Source: a virus (lineage: Duplodnaviria; Heunggongvirae; Uroviricota; Caudoviricetes). Taken from it: a stretch of DNA of 41,524 nt. The notes below the pieces were generated by a model. That model was not told the origin of the DNA and made no database searches. It saw nothing but the letters and a program-made list of their open reading frames with translations. The position numbers and the translations under genes were made by a program. The DNA lies in the IMG/VR virus record IMGVR_UViG_2648501334_000009, positions 1 to 41,524 of that record, one strand, 5' to 3'. Shown one piece after another: positions 3,501 to 35,637 of the stretch (position 1 is the first letter of the stretch; each line of letters begins with the position of its first letter).

Positions 3501-4121
3501 ATGGATATTTGGGAAAAAAGTAAAATTATTATATTTTTGCTTTTCGTTATTCCTGGTTTTATAAGTATGAAAGTTTATAGTGTTATTCATCCTAATACCG
3601 CTTTTGATACTTCTAAAGCGATTGTGGAAATTGTTTCTTATAGCTGTATAAATTACGCAGTATGGTTTGCTCCTATATATTTTATAGAATCTGAGGGTGT
3701 ATATCTCAAACATCCTGTTCTTTATTGTGCTTTATACTTGGTGATTTTATTCATTAGCCCAATATTGTTAACGATATTTTTCTCTTGGATGCGAACTTGG
3801 CGTTGGTTATGTAATTATATGCCACATCCTACCGGAAGAGCTTGGGATTATTTCTTTGGGTTAAAAGTCCCCTGTTGGATGATTATTACGCTAAAAAATG
3901 GTAAAAAAATAGCAGGCAAGTTTGGGGCTAACTCATTTGCTTCCAGTGCACCAGAGCCAGAGCAAATTTATCTTGAGGAACATTGGGTTCTAAACGATGA
4001 TGGGGGATTTGAACGCCCTCGAGTTTCAACATTAGGAATATTAATTTTAGGTAACGATATAGAAAATTTAGAGTTTTTCCGTTTTGAACTACCAACATGC
4101 AATAATGGAGAAAGCAACTGA
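3501..4121 (+). CDS. Hypothetical integral membrane protein (accessory moron)
   Basis: Three N-terminal hydrophobic helices followed by a soluble C-terminal domain; very AT-rich; on the opposite strand to the flanking early operon; AGGGG ribosome-binding site. Confidence 0.55.
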   Translation: MDIWEKSKIIIFLLFVIPGFISMKVYSVIHPNTAFDTSKAIVEIVSYSCINYAVWFAPIYFIESEGVYLKHPVLYCALYLVILFISPILLTIFFSWMRTWRWLCNYMPHPTGRAWDYFFGLKVPCWMIITLKNGKKIAGKFGANSFASSAPEPEQIYLEEHWVLNDDGGFERPRVSTLGILILGNDIENLEFFRFELPTCNNGESN

Positions 4122-4822: not shown

Positions 4823-5584
4823 TTAAGATGAAGCGTTCGCTATTTGAGCTTCATTAAATGTGAAACCGGCCTGTTTAAGGCGCTGGATTAAGCGAGGTAC
4901 AGTTTCTCGAACATGATCATTAAAGTTGAGATAAAGAATACCCGCAGCATCAGAAGGCTGTTCAAGGTGTTGCTTCTGCAAGATGACCACGTTACTGCGG
5001 CCGAGTGATGATAACAACATCCCCATTTCTAGAACTACATTTTGACGAGCCCTGGGCAGGGCTGCTTCTTGACCGTCTCTTTTGGAGTATCCCACATCAT
5101 CGGGAGTGAGAAGAACAATGCCGAAACGAGTCGCTGTCTGCCCTTGACCAATTTCACGCTCCAGTTCTTCAATTATCGTAAGTCCAGTACCACCTGTATT
5201 CTGCAAAATAAAATGATCAGGTAACCCAAGCTTATGAAGAATGAGCTCAAGCTGCTCTTTTGCTGCATGGTCGTGACCGTGAACGATGAAAATCTTTTTG
5301 GCTGGCTCTTGAACCGGGGCTGGCTGAACTCGTTGAGCTGGCGCGTTACCCAAGTGTTCATTAATAATGGCTTCAACCTCTGGTTTTGCCGCTTGTGAGC
5401 CTTGAATCAAAATCGTTCCGGTGTGGTAAAGCGTTATGATGGCACCATTACTTAAACGATAACAATCATGACCGGCTTTGTTTTCTTCTCCGGTAACATC
5501 AAATCCGGATTCGACTAAAAATTGACGAAAAGTTTCGACAGGGTGTGGGTATTTGAGAGCCATTTCATTGAGATCCTGCATCAT
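4823..5584 (-). CDS. Two-domain protein: N-terminal unknown domain plus C-terminal TIR-like (PF10137/Cap12-type) domain; candidate defence effector
   Basis: C-terminal motifs 'KKIFIVHGHD', 'FGIVLLTPDD' and 'RARQNVVLEMGMLLSSLGR' match my recollection of the TIR-like family consensus, with a conserved Glu in the ExG motif; AGGAAA ribosome-binding site; AT-rich 53-bp upstream spacer. Confidence 0.55.
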   Translation of the reverse strand: MMQDLNEMALKYPHPVETFRQFLVESGFDVTGEENKAGHDCYRLSNGAIITLYHTGTILIQGSQAAKPEVEAIINEHLGNAPAQRVQPAPVQEPAKKIFIVHGHDHAAKEQLELILHKLGLPDHFILQNTGGTGLTIIEELEREIGQGQTATRFGIVLLTPDDVGYSKRDGQEAALPRARQNVVLEMGMLLSSLGRSNVVILQKQHLEQPSDAAGILYLNFNDHVRETVPRLIQRLKQAGFTFNEAQIANASS

Positions 5585-5637: not shown

Positions 5638-7713
5638 CTAATCCTTACGGTAGTGGTACGCCTCAAAACCGCCAGCGTTCAGTGGGATATCGGGCGCCCA
5701 TTCGGGGTTAGTGGAGAGAAGCGCGGAAAGCACTTTATCGTTGAAATCTTCTGTGTCAGGTGCTTCGGTGATCACCTCGTCGTGTACCGTCAACACAATG
5801 CTGTAACCGGCATCTTCGATAAGCGGCATGTTTCCGGCCAGAACGTCGCGGGCGGCCGCCTGGGTGACGTTCTCCACCAGCTTTCCGCCGTAGGTTTTGA
5901 GTCGTTGCCATTTACGCGAATAAGAGTTAACACCCATATAGGTGATATTCCCTTTTTCGATAACCGGAGACGGGTAGCATACAGCGCGTCCGGATGGTAG
6001 CTGTATGCGCAGCCACGCGCCATCACGTCGGATTTTAAGATAACCGCAATACAATGTTTTTTGCGGTGTGGCGATTGCTGTGCGGACAGTGCGCTCCAGC
6101 TCGTACCAGAAATCGCAGGTCGCCGGGTGCGCCCTGCGCCACAGGCGCTTGAGCGAGTCACATGCGATGAATACACGCTCGGAAAGGCCAAAGGTCGACT
6201 TACGTTTAACCGATTCGTCGTACCAGCTTTTCGCCTCGCGGATAACATCGCGGGGAATGTTTGGCAGTGCGGCGTTCGCCAGCTCGTCGAGATCGAGACC
6301 GTAAACCAGAGCAAAAGTGATGAAAGCCGATACACCACCTCCATAACCCAGACCGAGTTCCATGACTTTACCGATCTGACGCATGTGTTTATCAACATCA
6401 TCTGGTGCAATATCGAAAGCTTTTGCATACGCCAGTTTATATAAGTCCGGACCCGTTCCGGCGTCGTACTCTCTGAATGCATTCAGTTTCCATTCTTCTC
6501 CCGCCAGCCATGCCAGCATACGGCCTTCAATGTTTGACAAGTCACTTACCACCAGTTTTTTGCCTGTTGGCGCGATAATGCAGCCACGTAACGCTGAACT
6601 GGTTAGTTCCATGATATTGTCAAACAGCAGGTCTGCACATCCGGCTTTCAGTGCTTCGATGCCTTCGTCTATTTGTTCCTGTTTTAGTGAAGGGCGGGGA
6701 AGGTTCTGGGGCTGGAATAGCCGTCCGGCCCAACGACCGGTACGTGACGCCCCGCAGAACTGTAGCGTACCGCGTAAGCGCCCGTCGTGGCTTACGCCTT
6801 TCATCAGTGCCTTGTATTTACTGGTGCTGGTAGTACTGGCTTGCAGGCGGATAGCCAGCAGTTCTTTCACGGCAGATGGTAAATCGGGGTCGGCAATACG
6901 ACGTTCCAGAGTACTGCGTTGCATGTCTGGTAGCTCCACACTGTAGGATTCAACAATGTGCTTAATCAACGCGTCCCGTTGTGTGGCTGCCTGCACTTCG
7001 CCATCAGTCATTTCCTGTGTACGCTTTGCCAGGCGCTTTTGCTCCTGGTCTACCGCTTCGATCGCAGCGCGCGCGAGTTGCATGTCCATGCAGACGCCCC
7101 GGTCGTTGATCTGCTGATCACGATGCCAGAGCGCCAGCTCTGTCCCCTGATAATTCCACTTCGGCAGACGTTTATAGACTTCGCGCATTGCCTCGATATC
7201 CAGTCCGGCGTAAGCAACAAAGCGCCGCCATTCTTCCGGGTGGGTTTTGCTGGTGGCACGGCGCAGTTTGCTGTTTTTCGGGCGGGGCTTACAGAACAGC
7301 TGGATCAGCGCTTTACCTTCTTTGTCCTTCGCTTTGTCTTGCGGGACGCCGAGTATTTCGCAGAGTTCCCCCAGAGACCCCGGGAGACCATGCGCCAGCG
7401 CCTGTACCATTGTGTCTCGCCAGCGTTTGGCACTACCTGCAACAACACATTGGGGAGTGTGCAGCAATGCATGGCGCAACATGGTGCGATCGAAATGGCT
7501 GTTGTGTGCATATATTAGTACGCTCTCATCGCTGAGAGCTGTCAGTAGTCGTGTCGGCAAGTTATAGTCTGTGGTTAAATCGTGTACGCTGACGGGGTCT
7601 TCGTCGATTGCCCATGCGAATAACATGATTTCGACTCCTTCTGCATAGACATGGGTGCCGTTTTTTATTGGGATTTCGCTGAAAGTTTCGAGGTCTAACC
7701 AAAGTTTTTGCAT
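5638..7713 (-). CDS. Family A DNA polymerase with N-terminal 3'-5' exonuclease domain
   Basis: Exo I motif 'LDLETFS' near the N-terminus; motif C '[10 protein letters not shown]' and '[13 protein letters not shown]' near the C-terminus. Start placed at the internal Met (MQKLW); the tracked ORF extends to 7755. Confidence 0.8.
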
Positions 7714-7745
7714 CAAGTAAGGACCCGTTGGATTTAATAAATAAA

Positions 7746-7768
7746 AAGCCGCCAAAATGGCGGCTTTT
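7746..7768. terminator. Hairpin terminator downstream of the SIR2 gene
   Basis: AAAGCCGCC-AAAAT-GGCGGCTTT flanked by A and T runs. Confidence 0.55.
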
Positions 7769-7789
7769 TATAACCGAAGTTAAGAATGC

Positions 7790-9292
7790 TTAATATGATA
7801 AATAATCATACAGGCATAAAAGTCGCCTGTATTGGGTATCAATTTTATGCCCTGGTTTTGTTAAATAATCTCGTAGTTGTTTCAATGAAATAGTATCGTT
7901 TAGTACGCAATACATAATCGTGTTAGCAACTTTATACTCTTTCGTTTCTTTTAGTATTTCATCAATAGACACAGCCTCACTCTTACATGTTTTAATTCGA
8001 GAAAGGTTACCAATGATTTTATCTAGCTGCCGTTTTCTGTATGTCTCGGTATTTTCTAGTTCAGGGCAGATAGAACTAAAAGCGTATATTGGAAAGTGTT
8101 CGCTATTAGCTATGGTTTGCTTATTCAGTAATGCGATAAGCTGAGAGTTTGCTTCGTCAACTATTTTAAAATAGTTCTGTATCATTTCAGATTTTGTTTG
8201 ATAAACATATTGTACGGTTCTTTCTGAACCAACAGCAATGACCATTTCATCATTGCGAAGTTCATCTAAATTTTCTGTAATTTTAACCTTTATCTCACCA
8301 CCACTTTTGATGGTACTCCAAACTTTTTGAACCTTTCTTATGTCCATTGCGGATACTGGCAAAACTAGTCCAGAGATGGCATCATATACAGCTTTGTAAT
8401 TGTTTGTTTTTATTTTGTTTATTCTTATGATAGACATGCCTTCTATATCTATGTCATGCTCCGTAATTTCAGTTGACATGCTGTCTTTTTCGTATTCAAC
8501 CAAAAGGAAATTATCTTTTATCCTTTTTGCAAGTTCGGTATTTAAGTCAACGTATGAGAATATGGTTTTTAATAAGTACTTAATGTTTTTATCGCTAATA
8601 CTATACCCTATAAATATGATAGGGTTGTGTATGAATATTGAGAGTAATTGAGCGCGAATTAACTCATATTTATTGTCGAAGTTTGCGTAGTCTTCACCTG
8701 TGATAATTATGTTGTTAGGATCACTAACACAGCCATGTATTTTGTAAACTGAACCGTATGGGTTACTTAAAAGAATGTTGTTACCAATCAGTGGGTTAAA
8801 TTCGAAGATATTCTCTACGAGTTGGTCGTAGTTTGTTGTAATGATGGAGCCTATGTTTTTTCTTGTTTTTATTAAGCTGTTTATTTCCTCCATCATTGAC
8901 TCTTTTATCTTTAGGTCTTTAAGTATTGAAGTTAAATAAATTTTGAATCGACTTAGTTTTTTTCCTTTTTTCATGTGCTCATAGAAAACATCATTGATGT
9001 CTTTGAACTTACCGTTACGATCTTCTGCCAGCTTTTTATTAAAAATATCTTCAAGTTTTGTAGCTAAGATATCATATCGATAGTCGTCACCTTCTAGGCT
9101 TTCAGCTTTCAAATCGTAGTAAAACTCAGCATTACCGGTTAGTTCCATTGCGACACTCAAAAGAAGACCATCCCAGCTAAATGAGTTTTCTAGATACCGT
9201 AGGCTAAATCCTGTTCCAATGAATAGAACAGGGTGGTTTTTATAGTGACTTACAAACTCTTGGATTTCCATACCGATTCTCAAAGTTGACAC
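7790..9292 (-). CDS. SIR2-domain protein (sirtuin-like NAD-binding fold) with an uncharacterised C-terminal domain; candidate anti-phage defence protein
   Basis: Motifs 'PVLFIGTGFS' (GxGxS loop), 'ITTNYDQLVE', 'VYKIHGCVSDP', 'IFIGYSISDKNIKYLL' align with the Thoeris ThsA SIR2 domain as I recall it; strongly AT-rich; GTG start with an AGAGG ribosome-binding site; own terminator. Confidence 0.7.
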   Translation of the reverse strand: MSTLRIGMEIQEFVSHYKNHPVLFIGTGFSLRYLENSFSWDGLLLSVAMELTGNAEFYYDLKAESLEGDDYRYDILATKLEDIFNKKLAEDRNGKFKDINDVFYEHMKKGKKLSRFKIYLTSILKDLKIKESMMEEINSLIKTRKNIGSIITTNYDQLVENIFEFNPLIGNNILLSNPYGSVYKIHGCVSDPNNIIITGEDYANFDNKYELIRAQLLSIFIHNPIIFIGYSISDKNIKYLLKTIFSYVDLNTELAKRIKDNFLLVEYEKDSMSTEITEHDIDIEGMSIIRINKIKTNNYKAVYDAISGLVLPVSAMDIRKVQKVWSTIKSGGEIKVKITENLDELRNDEMVIAVGSERTVQYVYQTKSEMIQNYFKIVDEANSQLIALLNKQTIANSEHFPIYAFSSICPELENTETYRKRQLDKIIGNLSRIKTCKSEAVSIDEILKETKEYKVANTIMYCVLNDTISLKQLRDYLTKPGHKIDTQYRRLLCLYDYLSY

Positions 9293-9382
9293 GTAATACC
9301 TCTATAAAAACAAATAGCCGTAAAAATTCCAATAGCTTTTTGGATCTCGCCCGGCGTGTAACCGGGCGTCTATGAAGAAGGG

Positions 9383-9931
9383 TTAAATCAGTGCTTCAGC
9401 ATCAGCACCTTCGCTGATATCGTCGAAATCGTCAGCGCTTGCCACTCCGCCGCCAGCGAATGCATCGCCGTCTCGCAGGAACTGGACTCCGCCGAGTGAG
9501 GCATTAATGCGTTTACCGAAATTATTGTCCTGTGCCCAGATATCGATAACGGCGTTTACATAGCACCCTGCATAGGGACGTCCATCAGCCTGAATTAGTG
9601 GCGAACGATCGCGATCAAGAACAGCTGGGCGCGCTTTGTTAGCAGCGTTCAGGAAGAAATTGCCGGGAAAGCCTTCATACTCTGCTTTTTCATCACCATC
9701 ATGCAGGCACAGATTGAGTTTTTTCTCCAGCTGGTTATAAATGGACTCCCACTTCTCCCCCCATTTTTCCTTCGCTACCTGCTTCATAGCTTTACGGATT
9801 TCTTCCAGTTGTGGGTGTTTGGGAGACATTAAAAATACTGCGGAGAAACGCGGATCGCCTTCGCCGTTTACAGTTTTAGCTTCAAACAGAGACGGGAAGG
9901 CCAGACGAACATTGTTCAGCTTCAGTTTCAT
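9383..9931 (-). CDS. DUF2815-like phage protein, putative ssDNA-binding protein
   Basis: N-terminus 'MKLKLNNVRLAFPSLFE' and acidic C-terminal tail; sits between the DUF2800-like nuclease and the polymerase as in related phage replication modules. Confidence 0.55.
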   Translation of the reverse strand: MKLKLNNVRLAFPSLFEAKTVNGEGDPRFSAVFLMSPKHPQLEEIRKAMKQVAKEKWGEKWESIYNQLEKKLNLCLHDGDEKAEYEGFPGNFFLNAANKARPAVLDRDRSPLIQADGRPYAGCYVNAVIDIWAQDNNFGKRINASLGGVQFLRDGDAFAGGGVASADDFDDISEGADAEALI

Positions 9932-9946
9932 GGGGATTTCCTTAAA

Positions 9947-11248
9947 TCAGATGAGGTCTGCGGTTAGCGTATCGTCGGATACGTCGTCGAAATCATTTAC
10001 AGGGTTGATATTGAGTGCGGGGCGTGGGTCTGACTCGGGAACGATGGTGGGTTTACCATCAGCTCGTGTTATCAGTGCCTCGACTTTTGACCAACGGCGC
10101 GGACTGGCCTTTTTGATAAGTTTTTCGGCTTTTGTGGGACTAATAAGTTTAAAGTCGAATACTTCTTCAGTTTTGTACCTGAACTGGTCCTTCAGAAGTG
10201 CGCGAGCTGCCTCTTCGTCACTCCAGGCCCGGTTACCTTGTTTTCCTGTTACCAGTTTAAACCCCGGTACCGGATGTCCGGCATTGAGTTCATTGTGAAC
10301 CCGGTCCCGTACTGCCTTTAGCCAGGATTCAATAAAGTCGGCCTGGCTATAGATCTCTGCAAGCTGCTCAATGGTTAACAGAGGTACACGTGCGCTGGCA
10401 TTGGTGATTATTTCGCTGACAGGCTTTGTCAGATCTTCAAAATCGCTGGCCGCTGTTTGTAAATGCTGCATTTTCTGGGCAGTGCAAATAGCTTTTGCTT
10501 TACAGAAGCGGCACTGTTTTTCTCCAGGTATGAAGTTTTCCAGTGGTAGTGTCTCAATGCCTTCGCATTCAGCAATATTGAGAACAAGGATCGCACTGGT
10601 TGCGGCCTCCAGCGCCCGTTTACCGAAAGACTGAAGTTCCTGTACGGTTAACGACCATTCTGAAACGTGGTTGAGCCTTGGTTGGTGAATAAATAATCTT
10701 ACAGTTTCAAAGTCATACAGCATGCTGAATTGTTCAAGCGCACCCAGAGCATACAGTTGTAGTTGCTCATTTTGTTCTGCATCAATGCGGACGCCTTTGC
10801 CATATTTCAGGTCGTGGATTTGTAATTCGTTACCAGCGATGATTATGCCGTCGGCAGTTCCGAAAGATTCTTCCACACCCGTTATATGTGAGAAATCAAC
10901 ACGTTGTTCAACCAATAGTTCATTATTCTTTGCAAGAGTCCAGACCGTATCAACATACCGGCCGACGGCTTCGACCATTTCATCATCCACCTGTGGGCCA
11001 GATGTATCATCAGGATTTTCGCGAAGGGGGTATGAGCCTAGAAACATAGAAACATTGCATCCGGCGTAGTGTTCCGGGTGGCTTTGCCTGTTTCGTAGAA
11101 CTTTTTCAGCAAGCGCGTGCGCTGCAGTGCCCTCGATTGCAAAAGTTGTTTCTTTATCCGGTTGTGTGGCCTCCAGCGCCAGACTTCCTGGGCAGCGCAT
11201 CCATCGATGCGCTGATGATGGAGAAAGTTGTGCATGAACGTCTGGCAT
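9947..11248 (-). CDS. DUF2800-like PD-(D/E)xK nuclease (Cas4-like)
   Basis: N-terminus '[15 protein letters not shown]' and a C-terminal cysteine cluster '[10 protein letters not shown]'. Confidence 0.6.
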
Positions 11249-27830: not shown

Positions 27831-28976
27831 ATGGCACAGGGCTTGCCTGTATCAAACGTTGTTAATGTTGATGTGATCATGTCGCCGCGTGCAGCATCAG
27901 GGCGAAATTTTGGTGCATTACTCATTCTCGGCCCGTCCACAATCATTCCGGTAAGTGAGCGCATTCGTCGTTATTCTGCCGCGGAAGATATTGGAAAAGA
28001 TTTTGGCGTGGAATCACCAGAATATAAAGCTGCGCAGGTGTTTTTCTCACAATCACCGAAACCTCAGGAGGTTTTTGTTGGTCGTTGGGTGAAAACGAAG
28101 GGAGACAGCGAACAGGCCACGCCTGAGACGCTGGAGCAGGCTGTGAATGCCATGCTTGATTATACTTCATGGTATGGGCTGGGGATTGCAGACGATGCAG
28201 ATATTCCGGATGCAGACTGGCTGAAAGTGGCTGCGGCGATCGAATCCTCTTCTGTAAGCCGTATTCTGGCGATTACGACAAGCGATGAGAAATGCCTGCA
28301 GACTGCATCCAGCGATGATTTGGCATCAAAACTGAAAACCGCCGGATATTCACGCAGTTTTATTCAGTATTCATCGGGTAATAAATACGCTGCGTTATCT
28401 GCATTTGGCCGGGCATTCACGGTTAATTTCAATGGCAGTAATACCGCGATTACGCTCAAGTTTAAGCAGGAGCCGGGTGTCGGGTATGAAACACTGACAG
28501 TCAGCCAGGCATCGGCACTTGATGCAAAAAACTGCAATGTGTTCGTGTACTACCAGAATGATACAGCTATCCTCCAGCAGGGAGTGATGGCTAACGGCGA
28601 TTTCTTTGATGAACGCCACGGCCTGGACTGGTTACAGAATTATGTGCAGACCAACCTCTATAACCTGCTTTATACCAGCACCACGAAGGTTCCCCAGACT
28701 GAAGCCGGTATTACCCGACTGTTATCAAATGTTGAAAAATCACTGGATCAGGCCGTTCAGAATGGACTGATTGCTCCGGGCGTATGGAACGGGGGCGACC
28801 TTGGTCAGTTGTCATCAGGTGACACACTGCCCAAAGGTTATTACGTATACGCCCAGCCGCTGGATGAACAGGCACAATCAGAACGTGAAGCCCGTAAGGC
28901 TCCGGTGATTCAGGCTGCAATAAAACTTGCAGGCGCGGTTCATTACGCTGACGTACAGATTAACGTTGTTCGCTAA
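27831..28976 (+). CDS. Tail sheath protein (DUF3383-like)
   Basis: 381 aa immediately upstream of a tube-like protein, chaperone pair and tape measure. Confidence 0.6.
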
Positions 28977-34483: not shown

Positions 34484-35215
34484 ATGCCAGTAGCGCAACC
34501 AAAAACTGGAGAAGTCGTCGCTAAGCTTGGTCCATCCTTGGAAGCAGGAAGAATCTTGCTTCTTGACCTTGAAAAACAGAAGTTGTTGAGAGATGCCCGT
34601 GCTTTACCTATAAGGTATCAATCTCTAGCACTTGAAGGGCTGATTCTGTTGCTGGATGGCAAAGTGGAGCGAGGTATCGAGGCGATTGAGACATCTCTAG
34701 CCATATGCCCGACAGATCCTGTTACTTGGAACAATTATTCTAGCGCACTAAGCAACCTTGGGCTTTACTCTAAACGGCGAGAGTTGCTTACTCGGGCTCT
34801 CGACTACGACTTCCCCTGCATGGTCGAACATGCTTTAAATTTTGCGGCCTTCTGGGCTGATGGGGAGATTCTCGATATGGCTATCGCTAAGCTTGAGAAA
34901 TTTGGTCAAACTGAAAAAGAAAAGCATGTATCTGCATTGGAAACCGCTGTAGTTTTGAGCAACTTAGGCGGTCCAATGAGTGACGGTTTGAAAAAAGCTG
35001 CAGATGTATTGATGTACATTGTGGAAAGCGAATCACTCCGTGCTAAAACCTCCAGTCTGCTTACCGATGGTGAGGGTTATGGTTCTTTTTCTGTTGGCAT
35101 CGAAACTGAAGACGCAGAGTATCTTTCATATCTTAACGATAAGGTCGTTGATGAGATGATTGAAAGAGGTCTAGAAACGGGATGCAGTGTCGCTTACTTT
35201 GAGGCGGTGAACTGA
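34484..35215 (+). CDS. Hypothetical helical repeat (TPR-like) protein, first gene of an accessory cassette
   Basis: 243 aa, helix-rich with TPR-like segments; lower GC than the neighbours; preceded by AT-rich non-coding DNA. Confidence 0.45.
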   Translation: MPVAQPKTGEVVAKLGPSLEAGRILLLDLEKQKLLRDARALPIRYQSLALEGLILLLDGKVERGIEAIETSLAICPTDPVTWNNYSSALSNLGLYSKRRELLTRALDYDFPCMVEHALNFAAFWADGEILDMAIAKLEKFGQTEKEKHVSALETAVVLSNLGGPMSDGLKKAADVLMYIVESESLRAKTSSLLTDGEGYGSFSVGIETEDAEYLSYLNDKVVDEMIERGLETGCSVAYFEAVN

Positions 35216-35637
35216 TGCCTGTAGCGATTAACTGCTTTCTGGAGATGGCTAAAAGCTCTATTGAGAATAGCGGTGAACAGTGGACGCGTAATGCGATAAG
35301 TAGAGCGTATTATACGATGTATCATTCAGCGTTATTGCTCACGGATGGCTATATCCCAACTCAAGATGAGAAAGGGCAAAAGTTACCCGGTGGGGTACAT
35401 GCGAGGCTTTCTGAATATCTTTGCGGCGAGAATGCAGCTCTAGCACATAGTCTTGACCGAACTTCTGCCAAAAAGGTTGGGCTTAAGCTCAAAACCGCAC
35501 ATCACCGAAGAGTCATTGCTGATTATAATCTTGATAAGCACGTTAATCGGATTGATGCTTGTAGTACCATCAAGGATGCAGAGGATTTGCAGTCACTTAT
35601 TGCTGGTATGATTGATACCAAAAAAACTGCAAGTTAA
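35215..35637 (+). CDS. Hypothetical HEPN-like helical protein, second gene of the accessory cassette
   Basis: ATGA start/stop overlap with the upstream gene; 'AISRAYYTMYHSALLL' helix-hairpin resembles a HEPN N-terminus, but no clear Rx4-6H motif. Confidence 0.4.
   Translation: MPVAINCFLEMAKSSIENSGEQWTRNAISRAYYTMYHSALLLTDGYIPTQDEKGQKLPGGVHARLSEYLCGENAALAHSLDRTSAKKVGLKLKTAHHRRVIADYNLDKHVNRIDACSTIKDAEDLQSLIAGMIDTKKTAS

Follow-up and report, generated by a model that had tools for sequence, protein, structure and literature searches.

The SIR2 cassette in the early operon

The DNA analysed here (IMG/VR virus record IMGVR_UViG_2648501334_000009, 41,524 nucleotides, in the following called the window) is a myovirus-type temperate prophage integrated beside yfhL in Escherichia coli. 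Its leftward early operon codes, read from right to left starting at the CI-like/Cro-like switch, for a DUF2800 nuclease, an Enc34-type single-stranded DNA (ssDNA)-binding protein, a SIR2-family protein, a family-A DNA polymerase, a TIR protein, a VRR-NUC nuclease, a SNF2 helicase and the integrase. The subject of this work is the SIR2 gene, to which a preliminary description made from the sequence alone had drawn attention. The span noted there (7746-9382) comprises the SIR2 open reading frame (ORF) together with the intergenic spacers on both sides. The ORF itself is located at 7790..9292 on the minus strand, like all features of the cassette, and codes for 500 amino acids (aa) from a GTG codon or 493 aa from an ATG at 9271.

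Four sirtuin-type motifs are present in the translation: FIGTGFS (aa 24-30, the GxGxS loop), TTNYD (aa 152-156), KIHGC (aa 184-188) and IFIGYSISD (aa 226-234). A profile-versus-PDB alignment pairs them with AGAGLS, TTNYD, YKMHGD and LFIGFSFTD of ThsA. Pfam SIR2_2 (PF13289) matches aa 149-246 above its gathering score (80.5 bits against a cut-off of 24.5, E = 1.7e-22), and the assignment as a SIR2-domain gene with ThsA-aligned motifs was thereby confirmed. Residues G26, G28, S30, N154 and H186 align to the ThsA motifs and are invariant across 45 aligned homologues. Asn154 (codon 8831-8833) and His186 (codon 8735-8737) form the catalytic-type pair, which we take to be equivalent to N112 and H152 of ThsA. 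The N-terminal domain (aa 8-308, 8369..9271) is accordingly named here as a predicted immune-type SIR2 domain bearing the Asn/His pair used by ThsA-type hydrolases of nicotinamide adenine dinucleotide (NAD+).

The base composition of the gene differs clearly from its surroundings. Its GC content is 33.3% compared with 50.4% in the remaining window, and in a 1.5-kb sliding window the gene is the global GC minimum, approximately 3.9 standard deviations under the mean; it is indeed far more AT-rich than its neighbours. Homologues have a GC content of 30-37% in every host examined, with flanks of 58% in Aeromonas and 53% in Klebsiella, which argues for repeated horizontal transfer. The phages vB_EcoM-606R2, vB_EcoM-689R2 and vB_EcoM-611R5 have flanks that are 98% identical to the window and lack the SIR2 gene. 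Alignment with vB_EcoM-689R2 (BLASTN) shows the homology break at 7695 and 9349, and the entire cassette, the segment without counterpart in these relatives, extends over 7696..9348. The gene is thus absent from close relatives, has an atypical composition and is followed by its own terminator: it is a compositionally foreign, horizontally acquired cargo ("moron") cassette, as had been proposed.

The terminator is located at approximately 7735-7770, between the SIR2 stop codon (7790-7792) and the polymerase ATG (7711-7713), and ends 22 nucleotides (nt) before the latter. It consists of a 13-bp stem, AAAAAGCCGCC-loop-GGCGGCTTTTT, and a T-rich tail. Folding with RNAfold gave -20.1 kcal/mol (z = -5.95), and none of 200 shuffled sequences was as stable. 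A scan for consensus terminators did not list this hairpin; it was the folding that verified the terminator postulated earlier. An A-tract upstream makes it potentially bidirectional. Hairpins of non-homologous sequence are likewise found 3′ of most of the SIR2 copies described below, namely those of Klebsiella, the P2-like and lambdoid prophages, the island and Aeromonas. The other edge of the slot is marked by an 8-bp GC-rich hairpin without T tract (9348..9368), 3′ of the ssDNA-binding gene. This hairpin falls within the region homologous to the relatives and belongs to the phage backbone; its Klebsiella equivalent is a full intrinsic terminator. In the Klebsiella prophage (locus L008, 6925-6960 and 8525-8560) strong intrinsic terminators are present on both sides of the cassette, and in the window a strong one lies within the early replication operon directly 5′ of the polymerase gene (7735-7770). 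Transcription of the polymerase gene may get past these terminators by antitermination or begin at an internal promoter.

Upstream of the gene, the CTATTGGAATTTT block (9323..9335, with TTGGAA at 9327-9332) is identical over 13 nt in Klebsiella despite differing flanks. It begins a block of approximately 45 nt, consisting of TTGGAA, TTGGCA, TTGAAG or TTGGAT, a spacer of about 20 nt and a TATAGAG-like element, that accompanies the SIR2 gene in five unrelated insertion contexts and might be a weak promoter. Judged from these comparisons, the mobile unit is a short 5′ block, the gene and the terminator, which is the classic layout of a moron.

Concerning the translation start, the GTG (9290-9292) and an AGAGG Shine-Dalgarno sequence (9299-9303, spacer 6 nt) are both present as originally reported, but the start itself is less certain than had been assumed. 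The Klebsiella orthologue has an ATG at the position of the E. coli GTG and keeps the GAGG, and the two differences in the first seven codons are both synonymous. This supports translation from the upstream start in the E. coli/Klebsiella sub-lineage. On the other hand, Met8 (ATG at 9269-9271) is invariant in the 45 aligned homologues, is the start of most of them and is also the RefSeq start (coding sequence of 493 aa), and the P2-like prophage copy, which is 83% identical, has an in-frame stop within the seven-codon extension. For these reasons the ATG at 9269-9271 is regarded as the family-wide start. Both starts are plausible; they differ by seven residues, and the GTG extension would be optional and functionally minor.

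The prophage family is present in 159 of 5,426 complete E. coli genomes, and five of these 159 carry the SIR2 gene, which corresponds to five of all 5,426 genomes. A conserved core component of the replication module with normal GC content in relatives, which had been named among the findings that would refute the preliminary interpretation, is not what was observed: the gene is rare in its own prophage family and has low GC everywhere examined. The slot between the ssDNA-binding (ssb) and polymerase genes holds at least five alternative cargoes in this family. Most common are small genes on the opposite strand (199-229 aa) with no known function, and in the three phages named above the slot is occupied by such an opposite-strand gene of 209 aa and 29% GC (in vB_EcoM-689R2, locus L001, 6041-6670). 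Other cargoes are an Nmad5 nucleotide-modification protein, in some cases accompanied by one more gene, a BRO-N protein, and an AntA antirepressor with small genes. None of the alternative cargoes matched a PADLOC model, and the slot is therefore a general accessory one rather than a dedicated defence hotspot. A description of the ssb-polymerase slot of these PolA phages as a carrier was not found in the literature searched.

The prophage of strain TUM1880 is 100% identical to the window around the SIR2 gene. Its DUF3383 tail-sheath gene is split by ISVsa5 (locus L012, 30263-31471), and a defective prophage was considered for the window as well. This was dropped, since the window's sheath gene is intact (27831-28976, an ORF of 381 aa). 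The intact gene and a difference of 1-11% in the late region show that the window comes from a strain other than TUM1880.

The PDC-S25 family and its domain architecture

The SIR2 protein belongs to a catalogued family. Its residues 4-500 match positions 4-514 of the 517 positions of the PADLOC model PDLC04968 (PDC-S25, E = 4e-158, PADLOC-DB v2.0.0), and it also matches PHROG 2695 (function not assigned) with E = 1e-154; RefSeq annotates it as "SIR2 family protein". ThsA1, Dsr1 and other SIR2 models cover the SIR2 core only and score much weaker. PDC-S25 is a computational candidate family in PADLOC-DB v2 (2023), and agreement with it and with PHROG 2695 extends over the full length: a single gene of ~500 aa with an N-terminal SIR2_2 domain and no structural difference. 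The PADLOC check that had been suggested at the outset thus returned a defence candidate. By these profile matches the protein is a member of the anti-phage candidate family PDC-S25. The idea of an undescribed single-gene variant therefore had to be given up, also because solitary SIR2_2 genes have been reported (Rousset et al., 2022).

Homologues form more than 1,700 clusters at 90% identity (E <= 0.001) with lengths of ~495-515 aa, and are found in Enterobacteriaceae, Aeromonas, Vibrio, Alteromonadaceae, Methylobacter and Firmicutes. Even between phyla, identity is 55-60% (Firmicutes compared with Enterobacteria), and approximately 120 positions, including the catalytic pair, are invariant.

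The genomic contexts of these homologues are diverse. A 71%-identical copy occupies the same ssb-polymerase slot of a decayed Klebsiella prophage, which was found in hundreds of assemblies. The phage genes around it are truncated there, the SIR2 gene is intact and a TIR gene is absent. The intact copy points to purifying selection for a host-beneficial function and suggests that the Klebsiella host has domesticated the cassette. In K. pneumoniae and K. aerogenes (loci L007-L011) the SIR2 gene codes for 501 aa, DUF2800 is cut to 71-121 aa, and ssb or polymerase is fragmented in some strains; exactly this 501-aa protein appears in 668 index blocks of the assembly collection. The 83%-identical copy of the P2-like prophage lies between the portal gene Q and the replication gene gpA, exactly the region that has been defined as a hotspot of defence genes in P2 and contains old and tin (Rousset et al., 2022; PMC9122126). 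A Cronobacter lambdoid prophage carries a 79%-identical copy after replication gene P, and an Enterobacter chromosomal island a 70%-identical one beside Mrr-type, PDDEXK and type I restriction genes. More distant copies are located alone between thrC and housekeeping genes beside an IS200-type transposase (Aeromonas), next to ahpCF (Vibrio), in an integrase island (Salmonella), and in a mobile island beside KilA-N and reverse transcriptase (RT) genes (Firmicutes). In Firmicutes metagenomes (Eubacterium/Anaerotruncus, loci L002-L006) the KilA-N and SIR2 genes are framed by two "Recombinase" fragments (162 and 170 aa), which looks like a serine recombinase gene broken up by the entry of a two-gene cassette; an RVT_1 protein of 993 aa and an HATPase_c_4 protein are encoded beside them.

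No neighbouring gene recurs across the nine contexts, from which it follows that the SIR2 gene is self-sufficient and acts alone. The earlier statement that it has no adjacent partner stands in this respect, although it had overlooked the nearby TIR gene, an independent candidate (see below). The locations in prophage hotspots and islands suggest a role in defence by the usual guilt-by-association argument. In one of the five E. coli copies (strain 23CRST009, locus L034) the gene is interrupted by the insertion sequence IS1 at approximately codon 52, equivalent to window 9130-9138, with a 9-bp target duplication. The element separates the GxGxS loop from the remainder, and RefSeq keeps a 494-aa "SIR2 family protein" there that reads into the insertion sequence.

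The domains of the protein differ strongly in conservation. Column entropy is approximately 1.0 bit in the SIR2 domain (aa 8-308) and 0.98 bits in the middle region (aa 309-408), compared with 2.25 bits in aa 409-485; on average, homologues share 68%, 67% and 31% of their residues with the window protein in these three regions. One homologue is 84% identical in the SIR2 domain and only 44% in aa 409-485. The middle region (8069..8368), with LPVSAMDIRKVQ, GG331-332 and AVGS, has 23 invariant columns out of 100. It is followed by the hypervariable helical bundle (aa 409-485, 7838..8068), our proposed specificity or sensor region, and by a conserved C-terminal helix (aa 486-500, 7793..7837, YRxLLCxYD) in which C493, Y495 and D496 are invariant. 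Two AlphaFold models of the protein were analysed. Modelling of the C-terminal part, which had been recommended, was successful for aa 409-485, the most confidently folded part with a predicted local distance difference test score (pLDDT) of ~90, but not for aa 313-363, where confidence is low. A well-folded, fast-evolving surface on an otherwise constrained protein is what would be expected of a phage-contacting region.

The preliminary description had also noted that the C-terminal part is not an obvious SLOG domain. This was corroborated, as neither SLOG nor Macro profiles matched. A profile of the C-terminal region yielded 177 matches among 1.84 billion representative proteins, and every full-length match is the region at approximately residues 300-500 behind a SIR2 domain. 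The region is therefore exclusive to the PDC-S25 family; a portable module that also occurs on other effectors was ruled out by this single architecture. For the C-terminal helical bundle no structural relative was found in the PDB or in the viral structure library; the best Foldseek hit of the C-terminal model in BFVD had E = 2.1.

The Rossmann-type SIR2 domain, in contrast, resembles defence SIR2s more than classical sirtuins in its fold. The nearest structures are those of defence NADases and not of SirTM, and many of the top relatives are deposited as helical or filament assemblies.

Comparison with known systems and possible function

DSR1 and DSR2 combine in one protein an N-terminal SIR2 NADase and a C-terminal region that directly senses a phage protein. 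In function they come nearest to the mechanism that we propose. Their length exceeds 1,000 aa, compared with 500 aa in the window protein, and their C-terminal regions are large and built of helical repeats. Of the profile checks proposed beforehand, SIR2_2 gave a match and Dsr1 did not: the NCBIfam Dsr1 model reached 11 bits where 1,400 are required, and the PADLOC Dsr1 match (E = 4e-5) is restricted to the SIR2 core. Compared with Thoeris ThsA (type I SIR2-SLOG; PDB 6lhx, 7uxt, 8bto and 8wc0), the window protein lacks SLOG and Macro domains, alignments end at approximately aa 305, a ThsB partner is missing, and the C-terminal half is unrelated, family-specific and mostly helical. Kongming KomC is a bare SIR2 protein of 264 aa that needs KomA and KomB, partners which the window gene does not have, and Avs5/AVAST5 (SIR2-STAND) contains a STAND NTPase and sensor repeats where the window protein has no NTPase domain. 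KomC, Avs5/AVAST5 and human FAM118B are classed together as filament-forming immune SIR2 NADases. In general, the required partner or fused domain of SIR2-HerA (Nezha; HerA), Kongming (KomA/KomB), SPARSA (short prokaryotic Argonaute) and Avs5 (STAND NTPase) is not found: the neighbours are the Enc34-type ssDNA-binding protein and DNA polymerase A, and PADLOC matches to the SIR2 models of these systems are marginal (E of 1e-4 or weaker). The validated "Sir2 homologue" system of Vassallo 2022 was ruled out, because no PD-T4, PD-T7 or PD-lambda PADLOC model matched.

The nearest described genes are solitary SIR2_2 genes in P4 and P2 hotspots, of which a P4 representative was called "likely a NADase" (Rousset et al., 2022; PMC9122126). 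This representative, P4 system 39, likewise is a single gene in a prophage or satellite hotspot, contains the TTNYD, KIHGC and FIGYS motifs and matches the same PADLOC model. It was cloned as pFR88 (Rousset et al., 2022; PMC9122126). The pFR88 protein matches the PDC-S25 model with E = 4e-85 and shares 33% identity with the window protein over aa 20-308; the BLASTP similarity is confined to the SIR2 domain, and the compared sequence ends at 399 aa, which places the C-terminus outside the comparison.

We lean towards the interpretation that the gene encodes a one-protein abortive-infection system that combines direct phage sensing, SIR2 self-association and NAD+ hydrolysis. The protein would be made at a low level in the lysogen and be inactive there. 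On infection by another phage, the hypervariable bundle would directly recognise a phage-made component, with neither a second gene nor a nucleotide-signal-binding domain involved. After recognition the SIR2 domains would associate with each other, as those of the filament-forming relatives do, and this would complete the active site; NAD+ would then be hydrolysed and the infection aborted. The logic resembles that of DSR2 or Avs5, with a much smaller and unrelated sensor. We infer oligomerisation because the top structural relatives are often filaments and the invariant segment aa 166-189 is disordered in the monomer model, and the sensor role of aa 409-485 because this region combines high entropy and 31% identity with a pLDDT of ~90. 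NADase activity, activation by oligomerisation, a directly sensed trigger, expression in the lysogen and the anti-phage phenotype would all be parts of this mechanism. The extension to the whole family, namely that PDC-S25 proteins are one-protein immune receptors whose orphan, diversifying bundle binds a phage protein and triggers a filament-type activation of the SIR2 NADase, is put forward tentatively, and we regard it as rather less than an even chance.

Several points weigh against the one-protein defence system. A published phenotype or mechanism for any PDC-S25 member was not found in the literature searched, where a validated solitary SIR2 of ~500 aa and PDC-S25 have only incidental mentions and no later validation was found; according to a 2026 paper, not every PDC system has been validated. 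The pFR88 SIR2, the only tested relative that was found, was not among the seven P4 systems reported to protect against eight coliphages (PMC9122126); this is weak negative evidence, as the panel was narrow and the relative is distant. Concerning expression, a consensus sigma-70 promoter scan found none upstream of the SIR2 gene, the conserved block is only promoter-like, and its best -10 candidates would put the transcript start on the Shine-Dalgarno sequence. Moreover, as part of the leftward early operon the gene would be expected to be shut off by the CI-like repressor in the lysogen. The two structural models have moderate confidence (pLDDT 75-79), with values below 50 in both for aa 166-189, which includes His186, and aa 313-363, and the active-site loop is thus unresolved. 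These two segments (8726-8797 and 8204-8356) are among the most conserved (NPLIGNxILLSNPYGSVYKIHGC and PVSAMDIRKVQ...GG) and may be ordered only on assembly or ligand binding, as an interface or pocket in an oligomer. SIR2 domains can also be deacylases or ADP-ribosyltransferases, between which and NADases the sequence cannot discriminate, and the hypervariability of aa 409-485 could reflect relaxed constraint and not diversifying selection.

One alternative is that the gene serves the lytic cycle of the phage or counter-defence. It would then be expressed with the early operon on induction and use NAD+ to ADP-ribosylate or deacylate a host or phage protein, or manipulate the NAD metabolism of the host. 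The position within the replication operon on the strand of its neighbours, the good Shine-Dalgarno sequence together with the lack of a consensus promoter, and the fact that it is found in the replication module of three kinds of phage (in PolA phages, behind lambda P and beside P2 gpA) would fit. We nevertheless consider this unlikely: 154 of the 159 genomes with the prophage family do without the gene, which is accordingly not needed for replication, homologues are not confined to phages (one lies in a restriction island, and those of Aeromonas and Vibrio are solitary chromosomal genes), and the terminator insulates the gene from the polymerase gene. In addition, the closest structural relatives are defence NADases, as mentioned, and the P2 gpA-gpQ site is a documented defence hotspot. 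Another possibility, to which we likewise assign a small chance, is indirect sensing, in which the middle region (aa 309-408) binds a small molecule or nucleic acid from an unlinked host system or a general infection cue; the protein would not be autonomous and the bundle not the sensor. This region is as conserved across phyla as the catalytic core, as would be expected for the pocket of an invariant ligand, and is poorly modelled as a monomer, and ThsA, the closest sequence relative, is ligand-activated. Against this, a recurrent partner is missing in all contexts, with hosts from Firmicutes to Aeromonas, and the cassette moves as a single gene.

A passenger without a defence role in E. coli, selfish or decaying, such as a toxic NADase that is kept by addiction-like effects or has not yet been lost, is quite improbable. 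The IS1 interruption in one of the five E. coli copies, the lack of reported protection by the distant cloned relative (pFR88) and the rarity of the gene would agree with a passenger, but length and sequence are strongly conserved, including the catalytic pair, and the intact copy has been kept among the truncated genes of the decayed Klebsiella prophage. The TIR gene, finally, raises the question of a split Thoeris-like two-gene system with the SIR2 protein as effector and the TIR protein as signal generator. It is located at 4823-5584 on the minus strand, 2.2 kb from the SIR2 gene beyond the polymerase gene, in the same operon, and Thoeris itself couples a SIR2 effector with a TIR signal generator. 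However, the TIR gene is also present in relatives without SIR2 (for example vB_EcoM-689R2, locus L001, 3105-3866), and no TIR gene adjoins the SIR2 homologue in any of eight other contexts, one of them the corresponding slot of Klebsiella. The TIR protein (253 aa) is of the CAP12/Pycsar effector type (Pfam CAP12-PCTIR_TIR, E = 6e-31) and not ThsB, and matches a separate single-gene PADLOC candidate, PDC-S35 (E = 2e-109); the SIR2 C-terminal part, for its part, has no SLOG or Macro domain. Since the two genes are not co-inherited, the Thoeris-like pairing was rejected; it is largely refuted, and we hold it to be extremely unlikely. The prophage instead carries two independent NAD-related defence candidates that flank the polymerase gene.

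If the one-protein receptor interpretation is true, it adds a new sensor module to the SIR2 defence repertoire, and the same cassette has been traded among at least four kinds of slots: the ssb-pol slot of PolA phages, the P2 gpA-gpQ site, the site after lambdoid gene P, and chromosomal islands. Should activity be confirmed, PDC-S25 would be validated as a minimal SIR2 defence system in which one protein of 500 aa suffices, and it would be worthwhile to mine the cargo slot at the ssb-polymerase junction of this prophage family, which is common in E. coli and Klebsiella. The protein offers a testable map with Asn154/His186, the conserved middle region and the 77-residue hypervariable bundle, which should set phage specificity. 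As it stands, the result is a sound but unsurprising annotation, as SIR2-type candidates in prophage slots of this kind are already known.

Other sites of note in the prophage

Three further sites were noted. A second AT-rich island is present at 3501-4121 on the plus strand (34% GC in 3501-4000), where an opposite-strand DUF6338 gene lies between the SNF2 helicase and nuclease genes. The same DUF6338 gene is found at the equivalent place in the Klebsiella prophage (locus L007, 11645-12256); it has no PADLOC match. In some relatives (E. coli O121 201805972 and GF4) an HNH endonuclease gene is located between the DUF2815 and DUF2800 genes, equivalent to window ~9931-9947, which represents a second insertion point of the same early operon. 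The tail module contains a two-gene insert at 34484-35637 on the plus strand that codes for a 243-aa protein with weak TPR matches and a 140-aa protein with a weak HEPN_IX match (E = 1.6e-4). TUM1880 has a hypothetical gene and a YafO-family toxin at this site, which is possibly another swappable slot for toxin-like cargo.

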